A DNA stretch of 64,000 bases from a virus: IMG/VR virus record IMGVR_UViG_3300003937_000247. One strand, given 5' to 3'. The stretch's first letter is position 1; every line of letters begins with the position of its first letter. A program made the translations under genes and the position numbers. Below, piece by piece: positions 1 through 64,000 of this stretch. The notes under the pieces are model-generated. The model had not been told where the DNA came from and ran no database searches. It saw only the letters and a program-made list of their open reading frames with translations.

Positions 1-1578
1 ACAATTTCAACTGATGGTACATTATATAGTGAAGATGATAATATAACTTTGAGTGGTGGTGGTACAGGTGGAACTTTAAAAGTAGGAACAATAGGTCCAG
101 GTTCAATAGACGAAGTAATTGTAAATAGTGGTGGTAGTGGTTATGCTGTAGGTGATGTTGTAAATTTTGGATCAGGTAATGCAGCTGCAAAAGTTTCAGT
201 TGTAAGTGGTGGTGTTACACTTGAAAGTGGTACAGGTACTGGTCAACTAGTTTTAGAAGATGAAACAGGTAAAGAAGATCAATATTTTGGCGATAAGGTT
301 GTACAAGAAAGTGGTACAGGTAATGCTGATATAACAGATATTAGAATGATAGATATTGGTAATGGTTATACCTCTTTACCAGCTTTAACAGTTACCTCAT
401 CAGGAGGAACAGGTGCAAAACTTTTAGCATATGGTTCAGAAATTGGTCGTGCATTAACAATAAATGTAATTGAGTCTGGATATAATTATCAACAAAGTCC
501 AGCACCAACAATTGTTTTACCAACGTATATTTTATATACAGCCCTTTCAGGAGGATTTACAGCTTTAGAAACAGTTACAGGTGGAACAAGTAGCAAAACT
601 GCAACAGTAGTATCAATAGACACAGATTTAAATATTTTAAAACTTAAAAACGCAAGTGGCGCCTTTACACAAGGAGAAACAATAACTGGTAGTGGTGGTG
701 GAACAATTTCTGCAACAAGATTAGAACAAGCAACTGGTACAGTATCCATATCACCAGTTGTAACTACAGATGGTAGTTTCATTAATGAAGATGGTTTTTT
801 ATCTGATAACGCAATGAAAGTACAGGATAGTTTAAAGTACCAAGATTATTCATATATTATAAAAGTAGGTAGATCAATTAATGAATGGAGAGATAGTTAT
901 ATTAAAACTTTACACTCTGCTGGTTTTTATTTTCAAGGTGAGATTACAATTGAAACACAATTGGATGCTCAGATTAAAAGAATAACAGGAATGAACTCTG
1001 GTATAACAGAAATAATAAAATCTGTTATTACAAGAATGTACTCAAAACTTATTGGTCGTAGATTAGGAACTGAAACAGACGGTACTAGTTTAAGATCAAA
1101 TGCTAATGCTGTTGTTTCTGCTGATTTTGATACAGATACAATTACACAATTTGATAGAACAACAAGAGATTTAACTTTAAAATCGCCAGCAATAGGAATA
1201 GATTATGTAAGTAGAGTTAGAAGAAACATACAACCTGCGTCTGGTAATGCAATAAATGTAAGACAAGGTTTTGCATATGCTGGGCCAAGATTTGGTGTAT
1301 TAAATAAATTTATTAATACTGCATTTGGTATTACTGCAAACAATACTTTTAGTAAAAGTGGTATAACGTTTGCTGTATTAAGTGGTATCAAAGTACAAGG
1401 CACAAGAACATCATTAGATGGTTCAAATGCTATATTTTTGATGACTTCTTCAGAGGATGGAAGAAAACTTAAAACCAATTTTACAATACCTGCACAAGTA
1501 GGTGAAATAAATCAAAATTCTATGGATGAAACTATTACGTCTATGGATAGCACAAATGTTTCAATGGATGCAGGATAA
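1..1578 (+). CDS. Baseplate wedge protein, gp7-like (5'-truncated by window edge)
   Basis: Frame is open from base 1; Gly/Thr-rich GxGY repeats; 'KVQDSLKYQDYSYIIK...WRDSYIKTLHSAGF' matches the QDS.YYQ..SY...HPAG segment of marine T4-like gp7; lies upstream of gp8. Confidence 0.75.
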   Translation, partial: TISTDGTLYSEDDNITLSGGGTGGTLKVGTIGPGSIDEVIVNSGGSGYAVGDVVNFGSGNAAAKVSVVSGGVTLESGTGTGQLVLEDETGKEDQYFGDKVVQESGTGNADITDIRMIDIGNGYTSLPALTVTSSGGTGAKLLAYGSEIGRALTINVIESGYNYQQSPAPTIVLPTYILYTALSGGFTALETVTGGTSSKTATVVSIDTDLNILKLKNASGAFTQGETITGSGGGTISATRLEQATGTVSISPVVTTDGSFINEDGFLSDNAMKVQDSLKYQDYSYIIKVGRSINEWRDSYIKTLHSAGFYFQGEITIETQLDAQIKRITGMNSGITEIIKSVITRMYSKLIGRRLGTETDGTSLRSNANAVVSADFDTDTITQFDRTTRDLTLKSPAIGIDYVSRVRRNIQPASGNAINVRQGFAYAGPRFGVLNKFINTAFGITANNTFSKSGITFAVLSGIKVQGTRTSLDGSNAIFLMTSSEDGRKLKTNFTIPAQVGEINQNSMDETITSMDSTNVSMDAG

Positions 1579-1580
1579 TA

Positions 1581-1588
1581 TATAAATA
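1581..1588 (+). promoter_or_regulatory. T4-type late promoter TATAAATA
   Basis: Exact consensus, intergenic, just upstream of ATG 1602. Confidence 0.8.
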
Positions 1589-1601
1589 GTAAGAGAGAGA
1601 T

Positions 1602-2708
1602 ATGACAAAACAAGTAATAGACATAGGATCAGTAGCAAACGACGGAACAGGTAGTACTTTACGTGCGGCTGGCGATTTAGTTAACGATAATTTTAATGAA
1701 ATCTACACAGCAATTGGTGATGGCACTACTTTAACGAGTGGTTATATTACTGCAACAAGTACAACTACATTAACAAATAAATCACTAGATTTAGGCACTA
1801 ATACTTTCACAGGTTCATTAGCTGAATTTAATACAGCTTTGCAAAGTGATAGCTTCGTTAGTTTAACAGGATCTGAAACACTTACAAATAAGACTTTAAC
1901 AACACCAACAATTGCAGAAATAGATTCAGGTGCTGATATTATGCTTGACGCAACTGGCGATATTTTTTTAGACGCAGGTGGTAAAGATATTATTTTTAGA
2001 TATGACGGAGCTCAATTTGCTCTATTTACATCTTCAGGTGGTAACTTATTACTTCAATCAGGAACAACAACTGCAATAACTTTTACTGGTGCAAATGCTG
2101 CTTTTGCAGGTGATATATCTGCTGCTGGTGATCTTACGATTACAGGTGATTTAACAGTTAATGGAACAACAACTACTGTCAACTCTACAAATACTACTTT
2201 AGATGATAACTTATTAGAATTAAATAGTGGTGCTGGTTCAAATGCAAATGATACTGGTATTATTATGGAAAGAGGTTCTACTGGAGATAATGCAATTGTA
2301 GCCTGGGACGAGTCAGCAGACAAGTTCATTATGGGAACTACAACTGCAACTGCTTCAGATACAGGAAATCTCTCAATTACTGCAGCTACATTAGTTGCAA
2401 ATTTAGAAGGTACAGTAACAGGTAATGTTACTGGAAACGTATCAGGTAGTTCAGGATCAACAACAGGAAATGCCGCAACAGCAACATTAGCTACAGACGC
2501 AACAGGATTAGCAACAGGTCGTACACTTGCAATGACAGGAGATGTTGTATGGAATTCAGGAAGTTTTGACGGAACAGCAAATGTAACTGCAGCTGCAACA
2601 ATACAAGCGGGAGTCATCAGCTCAACTGAATTGGCTAGTGCTGTACAATTGGATATCGTAGATTCAAGTGGATCAACGGTAAAGACAATATTTGGTGCAG
2701 GAAATTAA
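1602..2708 (+). CDS. Fibre / baseplate-attached protein with gp9/gp10-type N-terminus
   Basis: N-terminal 'KQVIDIGSVANDGTGSTLRAAG...NDNFNEIY' motif; TLTNKT fibre repeats. Confidence 0.7.
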   Translation: MTKQVIDIGSVANDGTGSTLRAAGDLVNDNFNEIYTAIGDGTTLTSGYITATSTTTLTNKSLDLGTNTFTGSLAEFNTALQSDSFVSLTGSETLTNKTLTTPTIAEIDSGADIMLDATGDIFLDAGGKDIIFRYDGAQFALFTSSGGNLLLQSGTTTAITFTGANAAFAGDISAAGDLTITGDLTVNGTTTTVNSTNTTLDDNLLELNSGAGSNANDTGIIMERGSTGDNAIVAWDESADKFIMGTTTATASDTGNLSITAATLVANLEGTVTGNVTGNVSGSSGSTTGNAATATLATDATGLATGRTLAMTGDVVWNSGSFDGTANVTAAATIQAGVISSTELASAVQLDIVDSSGSTVKTIFGAGN

Positions 2709-2719
2709 ACAAAAATGAT

Positions 2720-2727
2720 TATAAATA
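2720..2727 (+). promoter_or_regulatory. T4-type late promoter TATAAATA
   Basis: Exact consensus upstream of gp8. Confidence 0.8.
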
Positions 2728-2745
2728 TAATTAAGGAATAGAAAA

Positions 2746-4242: not shown

Positions 4243-4258
4243 AGAATAGAGGAGAAAA

Positions 4259-7200: not shown

Positions 7201-10200
7201 TAGATATGAGTTAAGAGATAGTTTAGATTTCAGACCAAGAGTTGATGACGCTTCAACAATAGACGCTGGTGTACAAGATAGATCATTTGACGGATCAGGT
7301 GCTTCTGTAGTACAACCTATTAAATTTAGTTCAGACGTAAGGTCAGATTTTGAATATTATTTAGGAAGAGTTGATAAAGTATTTTTAGATAAAGATGGTA
7401 ATATGAAAATATTAAAAGGCGCTAGTTCAGTTGCGCCAAGAATACCAGGTACATTAGATAATGCTATGCACCTATACACTTTATTTTTACCTGCATACAC
7501 ATTAGATACTTCTGAAGTTGGTATAGAACACGTAGATAATAAACGATATACAATGAGAGATATTGGTAGAATAGAAAATAGAATTGAAACTGCTGAATAT
7601 TATACACAACTTTCATTATTAGAAACAGCTGCACAAACTTTACAAATACAAGACTCAAATGGTTTAGATAGATTTAAAAATGGTTTTGTAGTAGATAACT
7701 TTACAGGCCATAATATTGGTGATGTAGGTAATGGAGATTACAAAGTTGCTATAGATTATGCAAATGGAGAAATGAGACCAACATTCCACGAAGACGCTGT
7801 ACAATTAATTGAAAGAGATGAAGATGGTACTGCTCTAGTAGCTGCTGATAGAACAGACGCTAATTATCAAAAAACTGGAGACTTAATTACTTTACCTTAT
7901 ACTGAATCAACTTTAATAGACCAACCTTATGCAAGTAAGGCTATCAATGTAAATCCATTTGGAGTATTTACATGGATAGGTTCAATAGACTTAACACCTC
8001 CAGGTGATGAATGGAAAGAAACAGAAAGAGCACCAGAATTAGTTATAAACAATCCTAATGGAAGTTGGGATAACTTAACAAAAAATACTGGTAACTCTAG
8101 TACACTATCAGAATTCCCTATGTCAACAGTTTGGAACTCTTGGCAAGATACTTGGACAGGTAAGGCTGTTGAAACAGAAAGAAAAAGTGTAGGCACATAT
8201 GAGAAAAGAGGAGGCCACGGTTGGAGAGTTATGGCCAAAGAAGAAATTACAACTGCTCAACAAGTTTCACAAACAAGAACAGGTATAAGAGCTGTTGCAA
8301 TTCCTCAAACAGTAAGAACATCTATTGGAGATAGAGTTGTTTCAGTTGCATTTGTTCCATTTATTAGAAGTAGAACAATAACATTTAACGCAACAAGATT
8401 AAAACCAAATACAAGAGTTTATCCTTTCTTTGATAATGTTGATATATCTGCATATGTAACACCAGATGGTGGTTCATTAGGAGGCAATTTAGTTTCAGAC
8501 ACAAATGGTAAAGTAGAAGGTACGTTTGCTATACCAGATCCAAAAGTAAATGCAAATCCTAGATGGAGAACAGGTCAAAGATTATTCAGATTAACAAGTT
8601 CATCTACAAACAGTTTAACAAACGCTAATGTTGAAACAGCTGCAAACGTTGAATATGTTGCAAGAGGTTTATTAGAAACTGTAAGAGAAACTATACTTTC
8701 AAGTAGAGAAGCACGTGTAGAGATGAGAAGTGTTACTGAAAGTCAAACTATTACTAGAACATCTACAAGAACGGAAGAAAGACAAGTTGGATACCACGAT
8801 CCTTTGGCACAAACTTTTTTAATTGATGACGCTGGTGGTGTATTCGTAACATCTATTGATTTATTCTTTAGTACAAAAGATAGTAACATTCCAGTTACAG
8901 TACAAATAAGAGATGTTGTAAATGGTTATCCTGGACAAAAAATATTACCATTTTCAGAAGTTACAAAGAATCCAGGTGATGTTAGCGTAAGTACAGATGG
9001 TACTACTGCAACTAAATTTACATTCCTAAGTCCTGTTTACATACAAGCAAACGTAGAGTATTGTTTTGTCATAATGGCAAACTCACAAGATTATAATGCT
9101 TACGTAGCAAGAATAGGTGAAACATCATTAGATACAAATAGAACAATATCAGCACAACCTTACGCTGGTGTTTTATTTAAATCTCAAAATGGTATGACTT
9201 GGAGTGCTGAACAAAATGAAGATATGAAATTTAAATTAAGAAGAGCAGAATTTAGTCAAGTTACAGGTACAGTTACTTTAACAAATGATACTTTATCTAC
9301 AAGAGCACTTAAAAACAATCCATTAAGAACAACAAGCGGTTCTAAAGTTATTAGAGTATTCCATCCTAACCATGGTATGCACGGTACAAGTAATAACGTA
9401 ACAATTGCTGGTGTGGAAAGTGGTACTCTTAATGGTATTGCTCATTCAGACATTAATGGAACATATACAAGTATTTCAAACGTAACTTTAGATAGTTATG
9501 ATATAACTTCAGGAAGTTCATCAAACGCAAGTGCTAGTGGAGATGTTGGTAGTACTACTGTAACAGCAACACAAAACAGATTGTTTGATGTATTAAATTT
9601 AGGCGGTGTTCAAACAGTAACTTTACCAGATACAAATATAGACTATTACATAAGAACAGCTACAGGTAAATCTGTACACGGTTCTGAAACAGAATTTGCG
9701 TTAACAGCAAATGAAAGTAAACTTGCTGTAGTCAATAATGACAATATTGCTTTCCCAGCGCCTCAAATGGTTGCAAGTGAAATCAATGAAACAAATGAAA
9801 GTATTACAGGCGGTAAATCTTTCTATACAATTTTAGAATTAACAACATCAAATACTAAATTATCTCCTGTTTTAGATACTCAAAGAATGAGTGCATTTAC
9901 AATTCAAAGTAGATTAAATAATCCTAGTTCAAGTAATACACCTGACTTTGTTGCTGATACAGTTAAATCAGGAACATCATCAGCTGCTGTTTATTTAACT
10001 AAACCAATTATATTGGAAAATAATTCAAAAGCATTAGACATAAGATTAACTGCTAACATAAGATCAACATCCGAAGTAGAAATGTATTATAGAGTTTCAG
10101 GTACAGACAACGATACTCAATTAGATGATTTAAGTTGGACAGCATTTAATACAGATGGAAGTTCAGACGCTACTGTAACACCTGCTGAAGATGATACAAC

Positions 10201-11393: not shown

Positions 11394-11405
11394 ACTTAAA
11401 AGATG

Positions 11406-11446
11406 TATAAATATATTATGGATATAGGTGAAAGAATTTATAAATA
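11406..11446 (+). promoter_or_regulatory. Two T4-type late promoters (11406-11413 and 11439-11446)
   Basis: Two exact TATAAATA boxes in the intergenic gap before 11513. Confidence 0.75.
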
Positions 11447-13232: not shown

Positions 13233-13767
13233 AATTAGTGAAGCAAGTGCAATAACTGAAGAATATTTAAAAGATAATTTTTTAACAGCGTACTTCATTG
13301 ACAATGAAAGACAAAACATAGAGATACAAACTACAACTAGAGATAAGAAACAAGTTATAACAAATATTATACCTTTTGATGAAGAAGATGTAAAATTTAA
13401 AGCACTACAAAGTGTTATGAATGTGGATCAATTACACGAGTCTACATACCAAAAAGTTAAAAACGAAAGAAAATTGTTTGAAGAAACAGTTTTAAGAATC
13501 GCAAAAAAAGATGGTATTGTTATGGACTCTGCTAAGATTGATACAAAATTTTATCCAAAAGTAATTGACGCTCTTTTTAATGATGAGGAGAATGCAGATC
13601 ATCTCTTTGCATTGAAATTAGCTGTATTTGAATTAGAAAAAATTAAAGATTCACAAGAAGAAGATTTAAAAAAACAAATAAGACAATCTAAATCTAAAAC
13701 AGAAATTATAGCAAAAGTTTGTGAGATTTTACTTCCTAAACGAGATATCCCTATTGGGGATATGTAA
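13222..13767 (+). CDS. Hypothetical protein
   Basis: ORF with AAGGAG RBS before ATG 13222 (track start 13198 less likely); helical, charged; no motif recognised. Confidence 0.6.
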   Translation: MTTEISEASAITEEYLKDNFLTAYFIDNERQNIEIQTTTRDKKQVITNIIPFDEEDVKFKALQSVMNVDQLHESTYQKVKNERKLFEETVLRIAKKDGIVMDSAKIDTKFYPKVIDALFNDEENADHLFALKLAVFELEKIKDSQEEDLKKQIRQSKSKTEIIAKVCEILLPKRDIPIGDM

Positions 13768-14365
13768 GATCCGACTTTAAAAAATATTTAGAATACCAAC
13801 CAGTCCATCCTACTTCCATTATGTGGTGCATTTGACCAAGCGTACACATACTAATTTGAGATGTAGTATCAAAGGTCGCCCTTTGAGATGGTTTATTATA
13901 GATGTAATCCTTTATTGAAGGACATACTCTACCATAAGTTTTGTATTTTATATTTTTGTAATACCATTCATCACTACCTCTTGTATAAGTGTCTATAAAA
14001 TGCTTGTCATTAGCTTTAAATGTATTCCAGATGTGTGATACATCACCTGTCCAAGATACAACAGACGAATTTAAAGGTGTATGATTAGGTTCTCTCCACC
14101 AAGTATCATCTAAAAGTGTAAAATCTTTTCTAATTAAGTTGGGTAATTTATCAAAGATAATAACATCCAAATCAAAGTATAAATTTTCACCATCTCTAAA
14201 TCTATCATACATTTGAAATTTATTAAACCAATTACCATATAAGTCATCTTCAACAACTTCAAAACTATCATATTTTAGACCAGAGTATTTGTCTATCATA
14301 TGTTTTAAGTTATCAACGTGCCATTGAGTAAACTTATTACCGAATCTACAACAAATAATCCGCAT
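13751..14365 (-). CDS. GT-A fold glycosyltransferase-like protein
   Basis: 'WFNKFQMY...NLYFDLDVII' DxD motif, 'NSSVVSW', 'GSDEW'. Confidence 0.7.
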   Translation of the reverse strand: MRIICCRFGNKFTQWHVDNLKHMIDKYSGLKYDSFEVVEDDLYGNWFNKFQMYDRFRDGENLYFDLDVIIFDKLPNLIRKDFTLLDDTWWREPNHTPLNSSVVSWTGDVSHIWNTFKANDKHFIDTYTRGSDEWYYKNIKYKTYGRVCPSIKDYIYNKPSQRATFDTTSQISMCTLGQMHHIMEVGWTGWYSKYFLKSDLTYPQ

Positions 14366-14983
14366 TTATTTTTCTTCCTACTCCTGTGTAGTGTATAACT
14401 TTAAGTTTTTCGTTTACTTCTTTATCTAATATCATATAATCAGTATTAAACTTTTTCATATTTTAACGTAATTTTGTTCGCCGTAGTATTTTTTATGTAC
14501 AGTACCGTTATTATAAAAATGTAGTTGCCAGTATTCTGGATTAAGTGCGAAGTCATCCCAAACAAACTTCAAAGAACCTGATTTAAATTTATAAAACCCA
14601 CCATTAATACCTAACTTGTTTTCCCACCATTGACCATATGTAACTAATTCATTTTCTTCAACAGGCCAATTCAATAAATCATCTACATTGCTTACAATGA
14701 CTTGATCTATATCCATAATGATAATATCATCACCTGGATTTTGATGTGCAAATTGTGGACTGAAAAATTTTAGTTTGTGCCAATGTTTAACTATATTACT
14801 ATGATGGTTGTAGGGGTAGATAAAGTCAGCCTTCATCCCTGGATGTTCAAAAGGATGTTTTCTATCTGCTAAACATATAAACTGAAAGGGAACTGTTGAA
14901 TGTTTTTTTAAACCTTCGTAAAGTTTAGAAACATAAACTGGTGGATAAAAACCTTCAAAGAAGACTGTACATATTTTAAGCAT
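14346..14983 (-). pseudogene. Glycosyltransferase-like gene split into 14456-14983 and a 37-aa C-terminal piece 14346-14459
   Basis: 'WHKLKFF...MDIDQV...NGGFYKF...GEQNYV' then a stop; 'MKKFNTDY...KVIHYTGVGRKINADYLL' continues in another frame. Confidence 0.55.
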
Positions 14984-15911
14984 TAAGTCTTCTCCACACA
15001 AGGTCAAAATCTTTATTAATCGTGTGGCAAAGGATTGTTTCTTCAGGTATAAAACCTTGATTATATAAAAAGTAGTGCCATTTGCTGTCTAACCACAGAA
15101 CAGGTACCTCATTTTCTTTTAACTTAACTGAAAATAATGTTTCATTATCCCAACCAAAGTATTGTCTTATTCTATCAGGAAATATGTTAGTTACATATTT
15201 GTCATTTACTGTTACGATTTGAGGATCTTCTCTACCTTTAGGAATATATAAAATATCTCTTGTTTGGATTTTTAAATGTGACATTAAAGCCATATTCTCC
15301 TCAAACTCACCAAAGTAATCTAATCTTGCAAGATTTAATTTATTAATACCTACAATGCCAGTATTAATAACATCATTTTTAATACTCATTTTTTTTTCAA
15401 ACAACATTGCTTGAGCATTATAATATTTTGATGATGGACTTCTTATTGTTTGAGAGGTGTCAGTAATAGCTTCAATTGTATTAATTCTATCATTGTTATT
15501 TAATATTGCTATACCTTCATTTAAATTCCAATGTTCAAAAAAGTTTTCATTCTTCATAGGTACAACATCAAAATCCAAATATAATATTTCATCATATTCT
15601 TCAGCCAATAGATACATTAAATGTATCTTATAAAAGTTTATTATATTATACATTGTTAAGAAAGGATACTTTGTTTTCATTTTGGAATGATAAATCATAA
15701 AATCAGTATCATATTCATACAATTTAAAATCAGCACCTATTTTGTTAGCATACATTTCTTTTACAGCACAAAGGTCGCCATAATGAAGTTTAAACTGATT
15801 TTTTGTTCTTACGTTGACAGGAGTATCACCTTCTTTAAGGAGGTTTTTATCAAAGATATCTATGTCATCTTTTGGTATCTCAATATATAAAGTATAAATT
15901 ATTCTTTTCAT
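14976..15911 (-). CDS. Glycosyltransferase-like protein (DxD)
   Basis: 'FYKIHL...YDEILYLDFDVV', 'INTGIV', 'DNETLF', 'LDSKWH', 'CHTINK'. Confidence 0.65.
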   Translation of the reverse strand: MKRIIYTLYIEIPKDDIDIFDKNLLKEGDTPVNVRTKNQFKLHYGDLCAVKEMYANKIGADFKLYEYDTDFMIYHSKMKTKYPFLTMYNIINFYKIHLMYLLAEEYDEILYLDFDVVPMKNENFFEHWNLNEGIAILNNNDRINTIEAITDTSQTIRSPSSKYYNAQAMLFEKKMSIKNDVINTGIVGINKLNLARLDYFGEFEENMALMSHLKIQTRDILYIPKGREDPQIVTVNDKYVTNIFPDRIRQYFGWDNETLFSVKLKENEVPVLWLDSKWHYFLYNQGFIPEETILCHTINKDFDLVWRRLNA

Positions 15912-16036
15912 AATATTGCTCCTATTAGTAAACCAATTAATATTCCTTCAACCCAAAATGCCCACCTATGCGAACCTTTGGCTGTATGTTTTTTTATAAA
16001 TTCTTTTAACCATATGTCAAATTCTTTATTTTCCAT
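15908..16036 (-). CDS. 42-aa membrane-anchored peptide, not in ORF track (MENKEFDIWLKEFIKKHTAKGSHRWAFWVEGILIGLLIGAIL)
   Basis: Manual translation; AGGA RBS; fills the operon gap; ATGA overlap with next gene; hydrophobic C-terminus. Confidence 0.65.
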   Translation of the reverse strand: MENKEFDIWLKEFIKKHTAKGSHRWAFWVEGILIGLLIGAIL

Positions 16037-16046
16037 AATATTATTC

Positions 16047-16925
16047 CTATGCTGGCAAAGGATTCTTTTCTAAATCCTCAACTCTTGGAAGCCTTCCAAT
16101 TAATGTAAATCTTGTTCCTCTTTCATCATTAATTTCATCTTCTATAAGTATTTCGCAATCTAAAGGTATTTGTGTTTTAAATTCTTTTACATTGTTTACA
16201 CAATTTATATGAGTATCAATATTGAACATATCATTTGATTGGAACGCAAAATGAGCAGTCTTTTTCATTCTTGTCCACCATGGAACTTTACGTGTAACTG
16301 GTACACCAAATTTAGAATCAAAGTATAGGGATTTAGGTCCTGGAGGTCCCCATTCAGACATTGGTCTCATATGTTCACAAGCGGTGTTAATGAAGATATC
16401 AGCATTTGTATATTCTTGTCTAAATTTTTCAAATACATCATCCGCAATAAAATTTACATTTGGGTAATCCATAAACAATCTATTTTTAGCTACATTTATT
16501 ACTCTCTCGTCCATATCTATTGCTGTTATTTTTTTAACTCTAGGTGCTAATGCAGGGACTAGAATGCTTCCAAACCAACAACCAAATATAACTATTTCTG
16601 TTTGCTCGTTAATTAATCCAAATTCGTCAAGGTGATTTATGATATTAAATTTTGCGTTAACTTGTGGTGTACTGAAAGAATCTAAAAGACTATATTCTAT
16701 ATCTGGTTCTTTTTTTATAGTTTGTAATACGTTGTCAAGCAATCTATAATCAATGCCGTCATTTGTTGCCTTTAATATATTGTGTAAGAAACCAAATTGG
16801 TCATCCTCTTTTATTGCATATAATATATCATCAAGTGTTCTATAGTTTATATTTTTATTTTGCAAATCTATAATATTTTTAAAAAATTTCAAATTTTCTC
16901 GTTCTATCATTTTCTTATAATCCAA
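16047..16925 (-). CDS. Class I SAM-dependent methyltransferase-like protein
   Basis: 'VIFGCWFG' motif I, 'ITAIDMD', 'FIADDV', 'INTACEHM'. Confidence 0.75.
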   Translation of the reverse strand: MDYKKMIERENLKFFKNIIDLQNKNINYRTLDDILYAIKEDDQFGFLHNILKATNDGIDYRLLDNVLQTIKKEPDIEYSLLDSFSTPQVNAKFNIINHLDEFGLINEQTEIVIFGCWFGSILVPALAPRVKKITAIDMDERVINVAKNRLFMDYPNVNFIADDVFEKFRQEYTNADIFINTACEHMRPMSEWGPPGPKSLYFDSKFGVPVTRKVPWWTRMKKTAHFAFQSNDMFNIDTHINCVNNVKEFKTQIPLDCEILIEDEINDERGTRFTLIGRLPRVEDLEKNPLPA

Positions 16926-18421
16926 TCATTTATTATTAATATATCCAAATCAGTTCTTCTAAAGGTTCTTAAAGCGTGTTGTGGTGTTTCTACAATTGGT
17001 TCCTGACAATTGAAACTTGTATTTAACAACATCGGTATGCCTGTTATCTTATAAAACTCATTCACTATATTATAAAACTTTTTGTTATCTTTTATATTTA
17101 TAGTCTGTATTCTAGCCGTATTATCAACGTGAGTAATCCCTGGCACTTTATCAGTTTTAACTTGACATATACGTGACATATAAGGACTAGGTCCTCCTCT
17201 TGTATCAAAATATTCTTGGTAATGTTCTTCTAATACAACAGGTGCAAACGGTCTAAAATCTTCTCTCTTTTTTACTGTATGATTAATAATATCTTTAATA
17301 TCAGGATTGCGTGGGTCTGCTAATATGCTTCTATTACCTAATGCTCTATTACCACTTTCTGATTTACCTTGAAACCAACCTACAATTTTTCCATCAGCAA
17401 TTGCTTGTGCCACTTCTTTGTAATCTGCTTTTTCTTCACCTAGGTAATTATATTCTCTACCAGCATATGTGTTTGTTTTGTGTATATTATTATTTAAAGT
17501 AAAGTCAGCGTGTTGATATGTTCCTATTGCTTGTCCTTCATCACCTACAGCAGGTGGTATGAAAACACTTTTATAATGTTTAGTAAATTCTTCGTTCATA
17601 TATCCATTGTAAGCAACGCCACCTGCAATACATAAGTTATCACAAGTCTTTAATGGGTACACATATTTTTTAATTTTATCAATTGTAAATTTTTGAAGTG
17701 TGTATGCTAGGTCATCCATGCCGTGTGTTTCAACATCAATTTTTTTAAACTCTTTATATTTTCTTTCTAATACAGGTCCGTCCATTATGATTTCAAACGC
17801 ATTATAATAATAACTACTATACTTACCATATCCAACTTTACCCATAAGTTTACTTGCACCAAGTGTACCAAAACCTGTAAGATTAGACATATGGTTCCAT
17901 AACCAACCAAGAGGTAGTACATCTGATAAGTCTATTAAATTTTGATCTTTGTCAAAGAATACACATCTAAATTTTGATCCTATACCATCAATTGCTAGTA
18001 TATCTGATTGTTTAAAACCAGAGTTTATAAATGCGTAAGCAGCGTGTGATTGATGATGGTCTATAAAGTAGATATTATCTTTGTAATAATAATCCCATAA
18101 TTTTTTAGGGTCGTAATTAAATATTTCATCATGGCCTTTTAAAACTGTTTTTAGTAATTCATCTTTTGATTTTCTTACACCACCATAAGTATATGTCCAA
18201 GCTAGAATACCATCATCAGGTTTTTTAAAATATCTTTCAGTAAACTCATCATTTAATCTATAGTCGCCAGGATCCAATATGTCTGATTGATGAGCATATG
18301 CCTCGGCTCTATATGGTAAGTTGTGTTTAAATCTTGTTTGTCTTTCTGCTTGATAATGATATGCACCATCATAGGTATTGTGGTCGTGTAAATTTAATGC
18401 TACGGAATATATTTTACTCAT
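16907..18421 (-). CDS. Carbamoyltransferase (NodU/CmcH/TobZ family)
   Basis: HD, ER..R.KH, DHHQSHA, IDGIG, KLMG, AGGVAYN, GDEG.AIG, GWFQG..E.G.RALGNRSILADPR, REDFRPFAP, HVDNTARIQT, LLNTSFN. Confidence 0.95.
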   Translation of the reverse strand: MSKIYSVALNLHDHNTYDGAYHYQAERQTRFKHNLPYRAEAYAHQSDILDPGDYRLNDEFTERYFKKPDDGILAWTYTYGGVRKSKDELLKTVLKGHDEIFNYDPKKLWDYYYKDNIYFIDHHQSHAAYAFINSGFKQSDILAIDGIGSKFRCVFFDKDQNLIDLSDVLPLGWLWNHMSNLTGFGTLGASKLMGKVGYGKYSSYYYNAFEIIMDGPVLERKYKEFKKIDVETHGMDDLAYTLQKFTIDKIKKYVYPLKTCDNLCIAGGVAYNGYMNEEFTKHYKSVFIPPAVGDEGQAIGTYQHADFTLNNNIHKTNTYAGREYNYLGEEKADYKEVAQAIADGKIVGWFQGKSESGNRALGNRSILADPRNPDIKDIINHTVKKREDFRPFAPVVLEEHYQEYFDTRGGPSPYMSRICQVKTDKVPGITHVDNTARIQTINIKDNKKFYNIVNEFYKITGIPMLLNTSFNCQEPIVETPQHALRTFRRTDLDILIINDWIIRK

Positions 18422-19253
18422 TTAATACACTCCCATATTTTGATATAGGAAAATGACCTTTAGGGTTAACATATTCCATACAACTTTTACAATAACTCTC
18501 ATATTTAAATAATCTATAATTCATCATTTTGTCAACGTTCTCCTGTGTAATTTCAAAATTTTTAGATACTATTAAATTATTAGCAAACTTTTTGCTACAA
18601 TGTACTATGTGTCTTTTCTCAAAATCTATAACTGGCACCATAGGGAAAGCTGCACACATTTTTCTATCTATCTCGGCTGATTGTTCATCAATAACTTCTT
18701 TCATATTATCTTTGTTAGGCGTTCTACCATTAAAGGTTTTAAACATTGTGTTGTTATGACTTATTGCTTTTATATCTTCGGGAAAGTTATCTTTGTATTT
18801 AAAATAGTTAGGTGTTTTAACAACTAGATTGTAATTGTTAAAATTATTCTCTGGTAACCAAGGAAAATTACCTAACTTCTCAATTCTGTCTTCATAAAAA
18901 TCTTCTGTTGAGTGTTCTACATAAAGTATATCTTTATCTTCTAGTATTTCAGGATATCTTTTTCTAACAAAAGAGTTTGATAATACTGAACAAACAAAAT
19001 TAGGATACTTTTTAATTTCATTAATAACATCTCTTAAATTTTTAATTAGACCTGGCTCACCACCTAATAGACAAACACGAATTTTATATTTCCTTAACTT
19101 CTCTAAAGTACTCTTTAGAAAATCCATATCAACAGTTAAGTTTCTCATCTCTAAAGTATAACTTGTACAATAATGGCAAGATTTATTACACGACATAGAT
19201 AGGAAGAAGTCTATGGCTAAATAATCTTGTTGTATTTCTTTTAAATTTTTCAT
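18414..19253 (-). CDS. Radical SAM protein with C-terminal Cys-rich (twitch/SPASM-like) domain
   Basis: CNKSCHYC, GGEP; C-terminal 'CAAFP...HC...CKSC'. Confidence 0.85.
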   Translation of the reverse strand: MKNLKEIQQDYLAIDFFLSMSCNKSCHYCTSYTLEMRNLTVDMDFLKSTLEKLRKYKIRVCLLGGEPGLIKNLRDVINEIKKYPNFVCSVLSNSFVRKRYPEILEDKDILYVEHSTEDFYEDRIEKLGNFPWLPENNFNNYNLVVKTPNYFKYKDNFPEDIKAISHNNTMFKTFNGRTPNKDNMKEVIDEQSAEIDRKMCAAFPMVPVIDFEKRHIVHCSKKFANNLIVSKNFEITQENVDKMMNYRLFKYESYCKSCMEYVNPKGHFPISKYGSVLNE

Positions 19254-19570
19254 CTATTATCAAATTTGTTAAAGAACAGTTTATTAAATGCTATTAACAA
19301 CTTCTCTTTAGGTCTACTTTTAAAATTGGTTTTTTTGAAAAGATAATCAGACCTTTCGTAACATTTTTCTATAATATATTCATAAATGTCCTCATTTTCT
19401 TTTTCAGTAAGTGACCTGTCTATAACTAATTTATCTCCAAATATAAATTGCATTCTTTTAACAAACTGGATTAATCTGTATGGAATATCATCTGTTATAT
19501 CAACCATATTATTAGTATCATCAACATAACAAAAATTAGTTCCTTTTGGACTTACAATTATCTCATTCAT
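19250..19570 (-). CDS. Hypothetical protein
   Basis: ATGA-coupled to both neighbours. Confidence 0.6.
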   Translation of the reverse strand: MNEIIVSPKGTNFCYVDDTNNMVDITDDIPYRLIQFVKRMQFIFGDKLVIDRSLTEKENEDIYEYIIEKCYERSDYLFKKTNFKSRPKEKLLIAFNKLFFNKFDNR

Positions 19571-21521: not shown

Positions 21522-21522
21522 A

Positions 21523-50980: not shown

Positions 50981-52604
50981 AGCATATCTAGGAAATCCTA
51001 ATTTATTTAAAGCAAATACAAAGATAGAATACACCGAAAAGCAAGTACGTGAGATTGCAAAGTGTATGGAAGATCCTACATATTTTATTACAACATATAT
51101 TAAGATTGTAAATATTGACCATGGTTTAATACCATTTGATATGTACAAGTTTCAGGCAAAGATGGTTGATACTTTTCATAACAATAGATTTTCAATTGCA
51201 AAATTGCCTAGACAGTCAGGTAAATCAACAACAATCATTGCTTATCTATTACATCAAGTTATATTCAATGATAATATAAACGTTGCAATATTGGCCAACA
51301 AAAGTTCAACTGCTAGAGATTTATTAGGCAGACTTCAACTCGCATACGAAAATTTACCTGCTTGGTTACAACAAGGCGTTCTCAATTGGAACAAAGGTTC
51401 ACTTGAATTAGAAAATGGTTCAAAAATACTTGCAGCTGCAACATCTTCAAGTGCGATCCGAGGTGGTTCTTATAATATAATATTCCTTGATGAGTTTGCG
51501 TTTATCCCTAATAATATAGCTGAACAGTTTTTTAGTTCAGTTTATCCTACAATTTCATCTGGTCAAACATCTAAAGTTATGATAGTTTCTACTCCACATG
51601 GAATGAATATGTTTTATAAACTTTGGAATGATTCAGTACATGGAAGAAATGATTATAAACCTATAGAAGTACATTGGTCTGAAGTTCCAGGTAGAGATGA
51701 TAAATGGAAAGAACAAACAATAAGAAATACTTCCGAAGCACAATTTACTACCGAGTTTGAATGTGAGTTTGTAGGTTCAGTTGATACACTTATTAATCCA
51801 GCAAAGCTAAGAATGTTATCACACCATACACCTCTTATTTCAAATGCTGGAATAGATGTGTATGAACAACCAGTAAAAGGAAAAGATTATGTAATGACAG
51901 TTGACGTTGCTAGAGGTACTGTAAGAGATTATTCAGCCTTTACTGTATTTGATGTTTCAAAAATGCCTTATCGTATGGTCGCAAAATTTAGAGATAATGA
52001 AATCAAACCTATTTTATTTCCTCACACAATAGAAAGAGTAGCAAAAAATTATAATATGGCTTATGTTTGTGTTGAAGTAAATGATATAGGACATCAAGTA
52101 GCAGACGCTTTACAATTTGAATTAGAATATACAAACTTATTAATGTGTATGATGAAAGGTAGAGCTGGACAAATATTGGGTGGTGGATTTTCTAAAAGGG
52201 GAACACAATTAGGTGTTCGTATGACAAAACAAGTAAAAAGAATAGGCGCCTCTAACTTAAAAAGTTTAGTTGAAGGCGACAAAATGTACATACCAGATTT
52301 TCATACAATACAAGAATTATCAACATTTGTAAGACGTGGTAGTGGTTGGCAGGCTGAAGAAGGTTCTAATGATGATTTGGTTATGTGTTGTCTTATATTT
52401 GCATGGATAACAAATCAAAGATATTTTAAAGAAATGACAGACCAGGATGTTCGTGCTAAAATGTATGAAGAACAACAACACGCAATAGAACAAGATATGG
52501 CACCATTTGGGTTTATGGATGATGGTTTAAATGATGATAGTTTTCAGGATGACAAAGGCGAAACATGGACACCTGTTACAGTAAGAAAAGGAGAGATGCT
52601 GTAG
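50973..52604 (+). CDS. gp17: Terminase large subunit gp17
   Basis: 'YLGNPNL', Walker A 'PRQSGKS', Walker B 'IFLDEFAF', 'STPHG', nuclease 'DVARG', 'DDLVM'; no intein seen. Confidence 0.97.
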   Translation: MTEAYLGNPNLFKANTKIEYTEKQVREIAKCMEDPTYFITTYIKIVNIDHGLIPFDMYKFQAKMVDTFHNNRFSIAKLPRQSGKSTTIIAYLLHQVIFNDNINVAILANKSSTARDLLGRLQLAYENLPAWLQQGVLNWNKGSLELENGSKILAAATSSSAIRGGSYNIIFLDEFAFIPNNIAEQFFSSVYPTISSGQTSKVMIVSTPHGMNMFYKLWNDSVHGRNDYKPIEVHWSEVPGRDDKWKEQTIRNTSEAQFTTEFECEFVGSVDTLINPAKLRMLSHHTPLISNAGIDVYEQPVKGKDYVMTVDVARGTVRDYSAFTVFDVSKMPYRMVAKFRDNEIKPILFPHTIERVAKNYNMAYVCVEVNDIGHQVADALQFELEYTNLLMCMMKGRAGQILGGGFSKRGTQLGVRMTKQVKRIGASNLKSLVEGDKMYIPDFHTIQELSTFVRRGSGWQAEEGSNDDLVMCCLIFAWITNQRYFKEMTDQDVRAKMYEEQQHAIEQDMAPFGFMDDGLNDDSFQDDKGETWTPVTVRKGEML

Positions 52605-52677: not shown

Positions 52678-54603
52678 ATGGCATTTCAAGTTTCACCAGG
52701 TGTTCTCGTACAAGAGAAAGACTTAACAAACGTAATCCCAGCAGTAGCAACTACGATCGGTGCTGTTGCAGGTCAATTTAATCAAGGTCCAATGGATGAA
52801 GTAATATCTATTGCGTCTGAAAAAGAATTGGTAGAAACGTTTGGAAAACCTGACTCTACAAACTTTGAATACTTTTTTAGTGCTGCTAGTTTTCTACAGT
52901 ACTCATCAAGTTTAAGGGTTGTGCGAGCTGCAAACACTTCAAGTGTAAACGCTGTCGTTTCTGGGACAGCTTTAAGAATAAAGAATACAGAGCATTACTC
53001 TAACGGTGACGGAAGTACAGGACCTTATAACGATGGTTCTGCTAACGTTGGCGAGTGGGCTGCAAGAACAGCAGGCGCTTGGGGTAATAACTTAAAGATT
53101 TCAACGTGTCCGAGTGCAACGGCATACGAAGAAACAAATAAAACAACAACTAATGACTCTTCAACAGCAGTAGGAGATACCACTATCGTATTAACATCAG
53201 GAACTGATTTTAATGTAGGTGATATCGTTAACTTCGGCGAATCTGGTGGGCACGAATACAGAATTACAGTAGTTTCAACAAACACTATAACTTTTGTAAG
53301 ACACCCTTCAGGCACAGGCGGACTACACACAGCTGTTGCAAATGGTACACAAGTAAGACGAAGATGGCAATACTATGACCTAGTAGATAAAGCACCAGCT
53401 ACATCAACTTATGCTTCTACAAGAAGTGGAGTAAATGACGAGCTACACATTGTAGTTATAGATGAAGACGGCGCTATATCAGGTACTGCTGGTGAAGTTT
53501 TAGAAGTTTATGATTCACTATCAAAAGCTTCTGACGCTAAAACACCACAAGGTGACACTAACTATTATCCAGATGTAATCTACAATAGATCAGAATATAT
53601 CTATTGGATGGATCACATTGCAACTGGTTCAAATTGGGGTAGTACAGCTTCTGGAGTAACTTCCACAGCTCTTACAGCACCATATAGTAGATCACTAGTT
53701 GACGGTGCAGATGGTTCCGCGGTTACAACTGCTGAATTAAAAACTGCTTACGAACATTACAATGACGCTGATACAGTAGATGTTAACTTAATCATCGCTG
53801 GTAAAGGTGACGCTACTCACGTAGATAACTTAATTACAATCGCTGAAAACAGAAAAGACGCAATCGTATTTGCTTCTCCTGAAAGAAGTGATGTAGTTAA
53901 CGTAACAAACTCTACTACTCAAACAACTAACGTTAAAGGTTTCTTTGACGCTGTTAGAAGTTCAAGTTATGTAGTTTTTGATAGTGGGTACAAATATACT
54001 TACGACAAATATAATGACTTATTTAGATACATTCCTTTAAACGGAGACGTTGCTGGATTGGCTGCAAGAACAGACTTAATCGCAGACTCTTGGTTCTCAC
54101 CTGCTGGATTTAACAGAGGCGGAATTAGAGGTGCAGTTAAACTTGCTTACAACCCAGTCAAAACTCAAAGGGATGAATTGTACAGAGCTAGAGTAAATCC
54201 AATTGTAACTTTACCAGGACAAGGTACACTCTTGTTTGGTGATAAAACTGGACTATCTACGCCGAGTGCATTTGATAGAATAAACGTAAGAAGATTGTTT
54301 ATCACTTTGGAGAAAGCGATATCAACTGCTTCTAAATTCCAACTATTTGAATTTAATGACGAGTTCACAAGAGCTCAATTTAGAAATATGGTTGAACCAT
54401 TTTTAAGAGATGTACAAGGCAGACGAGGTGTTACAGACTTTTTAGTTACTTGTGATACTTCTAACAATACTGCTGATGTTATTGATAGAAATGAGTTTAG
54501 AGCAGATATATTTGTTAAACCAAATAGATCAATCAACTTTATACAACTACAATTCGTTGCGACAAGATCAGGCGTTGCATTTGAAGAAGTGGTAGGAGGA
54601 TAA
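52678..54603 (+). CDS. gp18: Tail sheath protein gp18
   Basis: 'SPGVLVQEKDLT', 'WFSPAGFNRG', 'FDRINVRRLF', 'FEFNDEFTR', 'KPNRSINFI'. Confidence 0.97.
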   Translation: MAFQVSPGVLVQEKDLTNVIPAVATTIGAVAGQFNQGPMDEVISIASEKELVETFGKPDSTNFEYFFSAASFLQYSSSLRVVRAANTSSVNAVVSGTALRIKNTEHYSNGDGSTGPYNDGSANVGEWAARTAGAWGNNLKISTCPSATAYEETNKTTTNDSSTAVGDTTIVLTSGTDFNVGDIVNFGESGGHEYRITVVSTNTITFVRHPSGTGGLHTAVANGTQVRRRWQYYDLVDKAPATSTYASTRSGVNDELHIVVIDEDGAISGTAGEVLEVYDSLSKASDAKTPQGDTNYYPDVIYNRSEYIYWMDHIATGSNWGSTASGVTSTALTAPYSRSLVDGADGSAVTTAELKTAYEHYNDADTVDVNLIIAGKGDATHVDNLITIAENRKDAIVFASPERSDVVNVTNSTTQTTNVKGFFDAVRSSSYVVFDSGYKYTYDKYNDLFRYIPLNGDVAGLAARTDLIADSWFSPAGFNRGGIRGAVKLAYNPVKTQRDELYRARVNPIVTLPGQGTLLFGDKTGLSTPSAFDRINVRRLFITLEKAISTASKFQLFEFNDEFTRAQFRNMVEPFLRDVQGRRGVTDFLVTCDTSNNTADVIDRNEFRADIFVKPNRSINFIQLQFVATRSGVAFEEVVGG

Positions 54604-61743: not shown

Positions 61744-61748
61744 GTAGT

Positions 61749-62375
61749 ATGACAATTATAAACTCTAATACAAGACAGCCAACTAAACTAGACTATGCAA
61801 GTCCTACACAATTTAAGTTTTCTATAATTAAATTACCTAAAGTAGAATACTTTTGTACGGCTGCAAACATACCTGGTATCACACTAGGTACTGCAAATCA
61901 GGATACACCTTTTAAAGATATACCTATCCCAGGTGATAAAGCAGATTATGATACTTTGAATATATCTTTTTTAGTAGATGAAAATTTAGAAAACTATAGA
62001 GAGATCCATGGATGGATGACTGGTCTTGGTTTTCCTAAAGACCATTCACAATTTAGAAATTTACAACAAGCTGGTTCAGATAGATATCCTACTACTACAA
62101 GTGAAACTTATAATAAAGAATTAGGACAAGTAGTAAAACAAACTTCGGATGATGGTGGTTTATATTCAGACGCTACATTATTTGTATTAACAAGTAAAAA
62201 CAATCCAAATATAGAAGTTAGATTTAGAGATATATATCCTATATCATTGTCTGGTTTAGATTACAATCAACAAGCAACAGATATTAATTATCTAACTTGC
62301 GCTGTTACATTTCAATACAAGATATATGAGTTTGCAAATATTAGTGGGAGCACAACTATAGAAACTACTAGTTAA
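61749..62375 (+). CDS. gp3: Tail tube terminator gp3-like
   Basis: 'SPTQFKF.I.KLPKVEYF...ANIPGI.LG', 'FLVDENL.NY.EIH.W', 'SDATL..LTS', 'F.D.YP.SLS.L.Y'. Confidence 0.85.
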   Translation: MTIINSNTRQPTKLDYASPTQFKFSIIKLPKVEYFCTAANIPGITLGTANQDTPFKDIPIPGDKADYDTLNISFLVDENLENYREIHGWMTGLGFPKDHSQFRNLQQAGSDRYPTTTSETYNKELGQVVKQTSDDGGLYSDATLFVLTSKNNPNIEVRFRDIYPISLSGLDYNQQATDINYLTCAVTFQYKIYEFANISGSTTIETTS

Positions 62376-62399
62376 TTATAAAATAAATAATATTATATT

Positions 62400-63794
62400 A
62401 TGACCGTTCGCAAAAGACCATCACAGCAAAATTTACGTAAATTTATTACACGAGGAGGACCAGGAGACAAGTACCTTGGGGAAGGGAAAGTCAATATGGA
62501 CTCGTGGTTCAAAAAAGAGAATGTAGATATTTTAGAAGACCAAATTAGAAGTGGAGAGTTACCATTCTTTTGTGGTGCACCATTTCAAATGGTTTATACT
62601 ACAACTAGAGGAGAATATGCTCCATGTTCCTGGGTACAAGAAGGTTTTAATCCTAACATAAAAAATGTAAGTATTAAAAAATACTTTAAAGATAATGCAA
62701 ATTTAAATGCTCTCCGTAAAGAGATGACCACTCCTGGGGACCCTTTAAAGTTAGCAAAAAAATGGTGTGTAAACTGTATGAGTCAGGAAAAGATTTATGG
62801 TAGATCAAGGAGACAAGCTTCATTAAAAATACAAACAAACGATAGAGGTTTATGGCCTGGTATAAGAAGAGCTGTTGAAGAATGGAAGAAGACAGGACAA
62901 GGTCATTTAGAAGATAGAATATTAGAGATACAAATTAAAGCATTTGGAAACAAATGTAACCTAGATTGTTATATGTGTGTTCCTTATGATTCTACTACCA
63001 GATTAAAGACTATACATTCTGAACAACTAAAAGATGAAAAGGTATTTTCAGAATATGCTAAAACACATATTGCAGCTATGCCAAAACAAACTCTTACTTC
63101 TATAGTAGACCAGGTAGCTGAACTTGCCCCATACATTTATAACTTAAAGTTTATTGGTGGTGAACCTTTAGTTATGAAAAACTTTTATGAGATGTTAGAC
63201 GCAATAATAAAGACAGGACACGCTGATAAAATGTTTGTAAAATATCAGACTAATATGTCCGTAGTAGAATTTGAAAGAGTTAAAATAACAAATTATATTC
63301 CTCATTTTTTAAACTTTGAATTTACAGTATCTTTGGATGGAGTTGATAAGTGGGATGAATATATTAGACGTAGGTCTGATTTTGAAGGAATTGTTAACAA
63401 CATAAGAGAGGTAAAAAAATATCCTAATGTAACTGTAAACGTAAATGGAACAATATCCTTTTTAAGTGTATTGAGATTCTATAAATTGATAGAATGGTTT
63501 AATGATAATAATGATTTATTCTTTCAGATAAACTGGTCAAATATCAGAGGACCAAAGAAATTATGTGCCAATGTATTGCCTGATAAGATCAAAGAAGACC
63601 TTATTCCATTGTATAAAGACTGGCCAGACATACAAAATGTTCTTAAAGAAGACAATCACGGACTAGACTATCAGGATACGCTTGACTACCTTTTAATGAA
63701 TGATAAATACTATAAAGGCACTAAATGGGATATGAATTTATTTGAGGTATTTCCTGAACTAGAACCATATCATAATAAAAAGGAGACAAAGTAA
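62400..63794 (+). CDS. Radical SAM protein with N-terminal twitch/SPASM-like domain
   Basis: 'FCGAPF...APCS...CVNC' precedes CNLDCYMC; GGEP; 'SLDG..KWDEYIR'. Confidence 0.88.
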   Translation: MTVRKRPSQQNLRKFITRGGPGDKYLGEGKVNMDSWFKKENVDILEDQIRSGELPFFCGAPFQMVYTTTRGEYAPCSWVQEGFNPNIKNVSIKKYFKDNANLNALRKEMTTPGDPLKLAKKWCVNCMSQEKIYGRSRRQASLKIQTNDRGLWPGIRRAVEEWKKTGQGHLEDRILEIQIKAFGNKCNLDCYMCVPYDSTTRLKTIHSEQLKDEKVFSEYAKTHIAAMPKQTLTSIVDQVAELAPYIYNLKFIGGEPLVMKNFYEMLDAIIKTGHADKMFVKYQTNMSVVEFERVKITNYIPHFLNFEFTVSLDGVDKWDEYIRRRSDFEGIVNNIREVKKYPNVTVNVNGTISFLSVLRFYKLIEWFNDNNDLFFQINWSNIRGPKKLCANVLPDKIKEDLIPLYKDWPDIQNVLKEDNHGLDYQDTLDYLLMNDKYYKGTKWDMNLFEVFPELEPYHNKKETK

Positions 63795-64000
63795 TGACAC
63801 AATTAGACCTATTAGATGAAAGGCGACACGTAAAGGTATATGATGGTGAATCTATACCTGATAAGGAGTTGATTGAAAAGATCCTTTGGAGAGCATGGAA
63901 AGTTACGCCTTCAAAAAATAATTTTATGCCATATCACGTTAACGTTTTAGGACCTGAAAGGGCTTCTGAAAAAGAATCAATATGGATGAAATCAGTTAAG
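63794..64000 (+). CDS. Nitroreductase-family protein (3'-truncated; not in ORF track)
   Basis: Manual translation MTQLDLLDERRHVKVYDGESIPDKELIEKILWRAWKVTPSKNNFMPYHVNVLGP...: 'RR.V..Y' and 'TPS..N..P' FMN-binding motifs; AGGAG RBS. Confidence 0.75.
   Translation, partial: MTQLDLLDERRHVKVYDGESIPDKELIEKILWRAWKVTPSKNNFMPYHVNVLGPERASEKESIWMKSVK

Follow-up and report, generated by a model that had tools for sequence, protein, structure and literature searches.

Flank-dependent loss of restriction-type sites in a marine T4-like phage points to a phage-borne DNA shield at GG/CC steps

The 64,000-nucleotide stretch of viral DNA analysed here (IMG/VR record IMGVR_UViG_3300003937_000247; hereafter the window) comes from a marine T4-like myovirus, of which it represents the structural half; its G+C content is 33.3%. 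It raises the question why short sites of the restriction type are missing from a phage genome except where their terminal G or C abuts a further G or C. The original prediction, made from the letters of the window, took this pattern for the footprint of a DNA modification at GG/CC steps that protects overlapping sites. Compared with a null model in which synonymous codons were shuffled within genes (200 replicates), so that protein sequence and codon usage were preserved, many 4-6-bp sites are indeed under-represented, and a phage-borne shield at GG/CC steps combined with purging of unshielded sites by selection is in our view the probable cause. Below, paired figures x/y denote observed/expected counts, copies are classed by flank as having none, one or both, and a hyphen within a motif sets off the flanking base.

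CATG occurs 27 times in the window, where 92.7±6.1 copies are expected, and all 27 lie in CCATG or CATGG, as had been claimed (18 DCATGG, 5 CCATGH and 4 CCATGG; D is any base but C, H any base but G). The unflanked form DCATGH is absent, as against 42.8±4.6 expected and 28 in the lowest of the 200 shuffles, while the flanked forms are only mildly below expectation. The counts by flank class (none 0/43.6, one 23/44.8, both 4/3.6) indicate that protection is graded; given the shuffle proportions, the probability that 27 of 27 survivors are flanked is 3e-8. An upstream G gives CATG no rescue (GCATGH, 0 against about 12 expected). His codon choice shows the selection against CATG directly: before a G that does not start a GG, CAC outnumbers CAT by 52 to 2, a bias already noticed in the original prediction, whereas before A, C or T the numbers are 63 and 136. 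For GAATTC, 3 copies were found against 13.3 expected, none of them in the unflanked form HGAATTCD (9.3 expected), which agrees with the earlier claim; together with two IMG/VR relatives described below, 10 out of 10 copies are flanked. The coordinates first given for CATG and GAATTC were right overall, except that the CATG placed at 16278 starts at 16279 and that 2551 marks the G next to a GAATTC whose own first base is 2552. Coding constraint as the reason for the survivors is ruled out, because every CATG and GATGC could be removed synonymously, survivors are found in all frames and the shuffle preserves proteins.

GATGC, which had been said to behave like CATG, does so: only 20 copies are present against 111 expected, with HGATGC at 6 against 100.9±7.1 and GGATGC at 14 against approximately 10.1 to 10.7. 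Likewise, HGAGAC stands at 5/32 and GGAGAC at 12/12, and the few surviving copies of GTATAC, CGCG, CASTG and GTGCAC are flanked in the same manner (Table 1). The purge is far broader than the original prediction saw, as it includes CCGG (wholly absent, against about 18-19 expected), CGCG, TCGA (4/69.3), CASTG, CTNAG (31/111) and several 6-mers, among them AGATCT, ATGCAT, TCTAGA and ATCGAT with no copy each against 11-18 expected. Among the sites earlier listed as not avoided, TGCA and GTAC show no depletion in the window against the shuffle, but AGCT (160 against 301), GATC (95 against 148) and AAGCTT (5 against 16.4) are depleted about 2-3-fold.

The flank rule holds for at least seven motifs and at least five related genomes, and depletion that depends on the flank, with shielded copies near expectation, was found for both CATG and GATGC; these counts, their generality, and the dependence on lineage and the gene content described below are direct observations. 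In a 49-kb IMG/VR relative (G001), CATG was counted at 1/48.9 without flank, 45/46.7 with one and 4/5.8 with both. A complete IMG/VR relative of 165.7 kb (G004) does not avoid CATG. CGCG is retained there as CCGCGG (5/2.1) and in no other context (0/22.4), 23 of 23 copies of GTATAC carry a 5' G or 3' C (27 of 27 pooled for the GGTATAC-type flank), GAATTC is flanked in 5 of 5 copies, and GGATGC (29/25) and GGAGAC (16/26) contrast with HGATGC (21/198) and HGAGAC (2/87). The 19 polymerase-region loci in which GATGC is avoided, with their per-locus counts added up, have HGATGC at 1/195 and GGATGC at 23/23. In three further loci (L053, L083, L084) CATG is lost altogether, flanked copies included (0/19). 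CTNAG is also rescued by a 5' G across the window, G001 and G004 (in the window, G 26/39, C 12/42, A/T 24/142), suggestive of an additional, GpC-type layer despite the lack of a recognisable C5-methylase in this lineage.

Whether the exception belongs to the phage or to its host can be read from phages of a single strain. This comparison covers GATC and GANTC in four phages from strain HTCC1062. The podoviruses HTVC019P and HTVC011P have lost GATC completely (0/83 and 0/76), including some 30-35 expected single-flank copies each, and show no G-flank exception for GANTC. In the myovirus HTVC008M, GATC is absent without flank (0/195), present at 55/113 with one flank and enriched as GGATCC (28/11.7); similarly, G-GATTC reaches 22/25 against 6/154 otherwise, G-GACTC 15/12 against 0/68 and G-GATGC 14/15 against 9/178. 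Since podoviruses of the same strain purge flanked GATC and the myophage retains it, the shield belongs to the myophages and not to host enzymes, that is, the determinant is phage-borne. In the phage Mosig, GATC survives as GGATCC alone (19 of 19 copies, 6.5 expected) and all other contexts are empty (for example GGATCA 0/42 and AGATCC 0/39); this roughly threefold excess over the shuffle suggests positive selection for the flanks. The phage Melnitz purges GATC (24/370) with no GGATCC exception, and the flank rule thus varies between phages bearing different modification genes.

The same genomes show other losses. ACGT is wholly absent from Mosig (MT647606.1, L010-L012; 0 against about 235 expected). 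HTVC008M (NC_020484.1) avoids YACGTA (C 0/26, T 2/49) and keeps RACGTA, which is a genuine extended, BsaAI-like specificity, unlike the GG/CC rule. Zero counts were obtained for GATC, CCGG, CGCG, GCGC and GGCC in HTVC019P (among L126-L130 and L114), for GATC, TCGA, GCGC and GGCC in HTVC011P, and for ACGG, CTAAG, CTCAG and CAGCTG in HTVC010P. That pelagipodoviruses purge so many sites implies that their SAR11 hosts exert strong restriction pressure, although the literature gives no restriction-modification (R-M) systems for these bacteria (PMC9516812).

Melnitz served as a positive control, as its rescue contexts were derived by an unbiased screen before its modification genes were known. A 5' G rescues CCTGA (26/27 against 7/178) and CCTGCA (22/12 against 2/93), and also CCTCC, CCGG and CTGCAG. 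A gene for a C5-cytosine methylase and, after it, one for a Tet_JBP oxygenase lie immediately behind the DNA polymerase gene of Melnitz (L019:4010-6194), and C5-methylases associated with phage TET enzymes have been shown experimentally to recognise GpC[C/T] (PMC8256090). The contexts derived blindly equal this published specificity, which demonstrates that the footprint method recovers a known specificity. In the database entry (Melnitz-3, MZ577098.1; L018-L020) the pair is annotated merely as 'HhaI methylase' and 'hypothetical'. Melnitz also shows rescue of G-GTCTTC (14/12 against 0/61), lacks GGWCC (0/60) and has totally lost GGTACC.

We infer from these patterns that a modification exists in the window phage, and its chemistry and the enzyme that installs it are predictions of the following scheme. 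The hosts would carry many Type II-like restriction enzymes, and the phage DNA would be modified after replication by enzymes that the phage encodes and that recognise very short sequences. A first layer would consist of modified G:C pairs within the GG:CC step, and cleavage would be blocked wherever the terminal G or C of a site belongs to such a step (C-CATG, G-GATGC, G-GAATTC, G-GTATAC, G-GAGAC, C-CGCG-G). Shielded copies, being neutral, would stay near expectation, and unshielded copies would be removed by selection through synonymous changes; sites shielded on one strand would be partly tolerated and those shielded on both strands fully. As CGCG contains neither A nor T, the shield would have to be placed on the G:C pairs themselves or on their backbone, and one rule across many unrelated motifs argues for a single property of the DNA rather than for quirks of many enzymes. 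The likeliest agents in this lineage would be two amino-methyltransferases with an SPPY motif, predicted to form N4-methylcytosine (m4C), and/or an MT-A70 methylase, encoded in an island behind gp43. A second layer may be formed by Mom acting on adenine in an S-A-S context (S, G or C), which would rescue GA-GATGC and probably S-AGCT-S.

Contigs that share an identical AhpC protein and the gene order of this lineage carry a modification cassette directly after gp43 (Table 1). N4-cytosine methylases typically have SPPY as their motif IV, and motifs I and IV of the SPPY-type protein are both invariant in alignment A1. Its match to PF01555 is borderline (24.6 bits for the L016 copy against a cut-off of 26.7, 27.9 for the G001 homolog and 15.6-19.8 for paralogs), a search of PDB sequences gave no match, and NCBIfam and PHROGs were uninformative. 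The AlphaFold2 model is of low confidence (mean predicted local distance difference test score 56), and Foldseek returned a generic class-I methyltransferase fold. A paralog with 28% identity is present in G001 and G004, and the family comprises about 2,900 unnamed marine homologs. In the sub-lineage L053, L082, L083, L084 and L094, in which CATG is zero including flanked copies, the SPPY-1 homolog has 63% identity, as against 81-92% elsewhere. The slot behind gp43 is a hot spot for differing DNA-modification cassettes: it holds Mom, a GNAT-like protein, MT-A70 and SPPY in this lineage (L016:13983-17261), the C5-methylase and Tet_JBP in Melnitz, a DruA/DUF4338-like protein in HTVC008M (L131:9536-10660) and MT-A70 in Mosig (genome ends). 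HTVC008M encodes DruA/DUF4338-like proteins, one of them in this polymerase slot, and Mosig also has one. Different lineages thus probably produce the GG/CC (or GGA) shield with different enzymes, at least one of which is unrecognised.

Neither biochemical route proposed in the original prediction found support. For the 7-deazaguanine route, no match to the TGT family (PF01702, DpdA) was obtained in G004 (complete), G001, Mosig and Melnitz, and QueC gave a sub-threshold match only, in G004; this pathway was rejected. The route by C5-methylase, TET and glycosyltransferase was dismissed for the close relatives, as neither C5-methylase nor Tet_JBP occurs in G004 or G001 and only Melnitz has them. 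A Dam-type D12 methylase is absent from all genomes searched, and a small DUF6433 protein with a (D/N)PPY string, found in all four complete myophages, was dropped since the string is not conserved.

Mom of phage Mu targets S-A-S and forms N6-carbamoylmethyl-deoxyadenosine (6-NcmdA; PMC13219725), and Mom in this lineage appears to leave a separate footprint in this context. All four AGATGC survivors of the window read GAGATGC (G at -2, 4/4.5; A, C or T, 0/42), so that the S-A-S context is visible, albeit in small numbers, and no GA-GATGC rescue was seen in the Mom-less G004, Mosig and HTVC008M. The observed/expected ratio of AGCT rises with the number of S flanks (0.36, 0.49, 0.85), which is weaker evidence as the same gradient occurs in Mom-less genomes. 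The likeness to the Mu enzyme thus lies in the Mom-family gene behind gp43 and the fit of GA-GATGC to S-A-S; the differences are an identity of only about 28% and the CGCG, GTATAC and CATG rules, which Mom does not explain. The GG/CC rule persists in relatives that lack Mom (G004, which is complete, Mosig and HTVC008M), so that this enzyme is dispensable for the rule and is ruled out as its necessary agent.

Several observations weigh against a GG/CC shield installed by the enzymes named above. Mosig keeps the G-GA rule with MT-A70 but without the SPPY enzyme and Mom; HTVC008M keeps it too, and there MT-A70, SPPY, Mom, D12, C5 and TET were not found (TGT was not searched in this genome). The enzyme assignment is therefore not transferable across the group. 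In a comparison of slot enzymes with the CATG rule over 80 polymerase loci, mostly short contigs, the two did not track each other cleanly: L021, with Mom only, and L064, with MT-A70 only, both have no DCATGH, although both are short contigs. C-CATG and GCATC-C could not both contain the modified base within the site if each CC step carried just one; the alternatives are modification of both bases, the action of two enzymes, or a block to cleavage by a modification next to the site. Asymmetric sites are rescued by the 5' G flank alone, with no clear rescue of GATGCC and GAGACC, and some motifs of G004 that begin with C are rescued by C and G flanks alike, as is CAGTG (C 8/19, G 10/22, A/T 0/64). 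Finally, CCGG holds both CC and GG and yet is absent from the window (0/18.9), G001 (0/12.8) and G004 (0/45.6), including the contexts ACCGGT, ACCGGA and TCCGGA, which means that a simple GG/CC shield is insufficient; to account for the loss of CCGG one would have to suppose something further, for example a restriction enzyme unaffected by the modified position or one that is modification-dependent.

An alternative reading is that there is no phage modification and that host enzymes intrinsically spare G/C-flanked sites by extended or negative flank specificity, in which case these copies would never have been under selection. The YACGTA-only avoidance in HTVC008M is a true extended specificity of this kind, L021 and L064 follow the CATG rule despite different slot enzymes, and HTVC008M follows the rule with no recognisable methylase. 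However, at least seven unrelated recognition sequences would then have to share one 'doubled end base' exception, and the same HTCC1062 host would have to treat its phages differently, as its podoviruses purge G-flanked GATC and have no G-GANTC exception whereas its myovirus keeps both. That close relatives differ on CATG (L053, L083 and L084 have none, flanked or not) and that the Melnitz rule matches the published specificity of its own enzyme class further render this explanation improbable. The HTCC1062 podoviruses also speak against a host orphan methylase of CC/GG-type specificity that would mark phage DNA during infection and so protect flanked sites. Host methylation is a known route of protection and the rule is not linked to a particular phage enzyme, but single-molecule real-time (SMRT) surveys of Pelagibacterales gave only GANTC/GAWTC-type methylation and viral motifs are seldom shared with prokaryotic ones (both PMC8919816); as the rule moreover shifts with the phage lineage, we consider a host methylase very unlikely indeed.

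A shield on adenine only, with Mom and/or MT-A70 modifying the A beside CC or GG (CCA, GGA), would leave CCGG and CGCG unprotectable. It accounts for the total loss of CCGG, the near-loss of TCGA and the 5'-only rescue of GATGC; both enzymes are encoded in the lineage, and every rescued site in Mosig and HTVC008M begins with GGA. But CGCG, which contains no A or T, survives only as CCGCGG (in G004 and, once, in the window), a T follows GG in GGTATAC (27 of 27 pooled) and GGTGCAC, and Mom is absent from G004, Mosig and HTVC008M, the last of which lacks MT-A70 too. CCGCGG, GGTATAC and GGTGCAC exclude adenine modification as the sole cause, and overall we judge this model very unlikely. A phage-borne shield on the GG/CC step itself, as the original prediction had it, is thus favoured by the breadth of motifs and genomes, the dependence on lineage, the same-strain podoviruses and the Melnitz control, although it does not explain the loss of CCGG.

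In common with classical palindrome avoidance by phages, palindromes of 4-6 bp are in many cases strongly depleted relative to the codon-preserving null; what differs is that whether a site is avoided here depends on the adjoining outer base, a dependence of which no description was found in the searchable literature. The chlorovirus C5-methylases M.CviPI (GpC) and M.CviPII (CCD) come from viruses of eukaryotic algae and have companion nucleases. They resemble the proposed system in being viral orphan methylases with very short motifs that shield only overlapping restriction sites, whereas the candidates here are SPPY-type amino-methylases or MT-A70 of a T4-like phage, which have clamp-type tails and a specificity deduced from the footprint (M.CviPI is cited in PMC8256090). 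The phage C5-methylase/TET system 5mYOX of Burke et al. 2021 (PMC8256090) is likewise an orphan, phage-encoded, post-replicative mark of very short specificity thought to serve restriction evasion; it occurs in the relative Melnitz, in genes behind gp43, and fits the 5' G rescue of sites beginning with CC or CT. In contrast, G001 and G004 have no C5-methylase or Tet_JBP, the step in the window is CC/GG and not GpC, and GCATG is not rescued. Closest in ecology and taxonomy are the marine Myoviridae-like viral metagenome-assembled genomes studied by SMRT sequencing (Hiraoka et al. 2022, PMC8919816), which bear mainly m4C in motifs containing CC or GG (CCNGG, CCWGG, GGWCC, GGHCC) and about 2.2 methylase genes per genome, which speaks for the GG/CC scheme above. 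These 4-5-mer motifs alone do not cover CCATG and GGATGC, and the study neither related them to the avoidance of sites nor assigned them to individual enzymes.

A bolder reading, which we put forward as a doubtful though conceivable one, is that pelagimyophages as a group carry an undescribed post-replicative mark at the GG:CC step (GGA in HTVC008M and Mosig), installed by polymerase-slot enzymes that are probably tethered to the clamp, in SAR11/OM43-type hosts that are restriction-rich as a population. HTVC008M follows the rule without a recognisable DNA methylase, Mom or TET, so that at least one installer would be of a new class, for which the DruA/DUF4338-like protein in its slot would be the leading candidate.

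Table 1. Positions of surviving sites and related features in the window, and genes of the cassette behind gp43 in a syntenic contig
Feature	Position	Strand	Remark
Depleted sites, survivors with terminal G/C abutting an extra G/C	1..64000		whole window
CATG sites, first part	5946, 7971, 9371, 11512, 11826, 16279, 17717, 18130, 21823, 22547, 27067, 27700, 38665, 38973
CATG sites, remainder	48331, 48891, 51120, 51597, 51639, 52402, 52564, 54834, 57389, 61554, 62007, 62623, 63894
GGAATTC survivor	2551..2557		GAATTC itself at 2552
GAATTCC survivor	8111..8117		one of three GAATTC in the window
GAATTCC survivor	37016..37022		one of three GAATTC in the window
GTATAC survivors	24999..25006, 27785, 29297 (GGTATACC); 29579 (GGTATACT)		5' G in 4 of 4
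CCGCGG, sole CGCG	53717..53722		CCGCGG 1/0.3; remaining contexts 0/11
CACTGG (= CCAGTG), sole CASTG	37364..37369		CASTG 1 against 49.0±6.5
GGTGCACC, sole GTGCAC	62574..62581		6 of 6 flanked, pooled with G004
GAGATGC, GATGC with upstream GA (G-A-G)	52593..52599, 60815-60821, 61175-61181	+
GAGATGC	22386-22392	-
Tailoring island	13751..23406	-	Pfam: GT8 glycosyltransferase, methyltransferase-like, carbamoyltransferase, radical SAM, DegT aminotransferase
Mom-family gene (PF25680)	post-gp43 cassette, syntenic contig L016:13983-14762		161.1 bits against a cut-off of 27.1
GNAT-like open reading frame	post-gp43 cassette
MT-A70 methylase	post-gp43 cassette, L016:15342-15893		118 bits
SPPY-type protein (SPPY-1), 434 aa	post-gp43 cassette, L016:15957-17261		motif I LDTSCGWGD, motif IV FTSPPYF, C-terminus RRATLF
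Second SPPY-type candidate (SPPY-2)	L110:9023-10099
ThyX and radical SAM protein	post-gp43 cassette

Virion genes of the window encode baseplate wedge, sheath, portal, scaffold and major capsid proteins, and the isolates closest to it are the Pelagibacter phage Mosig and cyanomyoviruses. A 90.9-kb marine contig from the Joint Genome Institute matches it at 100% identity over 11.6 kb. Exact-protein look-ups led to neighbouring sequence that encodes ribosomal protein S21, HSP20, peptide deformylase, TctA and CsgF, a set also present in the cultured relatives HTVC008M, Mosig and Melnitz. The window phage is best explained as a pelagimyophage-type T4-like virus.

The minus-strand island listed in Table 1 is only a putative contributor to DNA modification; glycan chemistry would be its more likely role. 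It is part of a tailoring island of about 20 kb within the virion gene block (window 12483-33295) that includes an epimerase, GT8, carbamoyltransferase, DegT aminotransferase, TctA and several radical SAM proteins, one of them B12-binding, and a homologous island is present in Mosig. A further cluster, at window 62400-63794 and downstream (L001:10001-14188), lies between a tail-tube-like gene and uvsY and consists of a radical SAM protein (464 aa), a nitroreductase, a 193-aa open reading frame and a second radical SAM protein (500 aa). Contig L006 corresponds to window 1-12700, with about 73% positional identity in part of this stretch, and contains DCATGH (3), CASTG (6), ATGCAT (3) and CCGG (1), all of which the window lacks there; this is consistent with a recent import of DNA in which the purge is still pending.

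Sequence alone can thus reveal the restriction pressure acting on a phage together with the context of the phage's own DNA modification, and the TET-bearing phage used as a control validates this approach. Unreported DNA marks at GG/CC steps are predicted for abundant ocean phages, three cultured ones among them, and as the footprint is present in these three the prediction is open to direct bench testing. It also singles out uncharacterised enzymes, namely the SPPY methylases and the DruA-like proteins; enzymes with dinucleotide specificity would serve as tools for DNA footprinting and DNA protection. For the hosts, substantial restriction activity is implied in streamlined marine bacteria that are said to be without R-M systems and, if this is true, the breadth of purged sites means that SAR11/OM43-type hosts would hold a rich restriction repertoire as a population.

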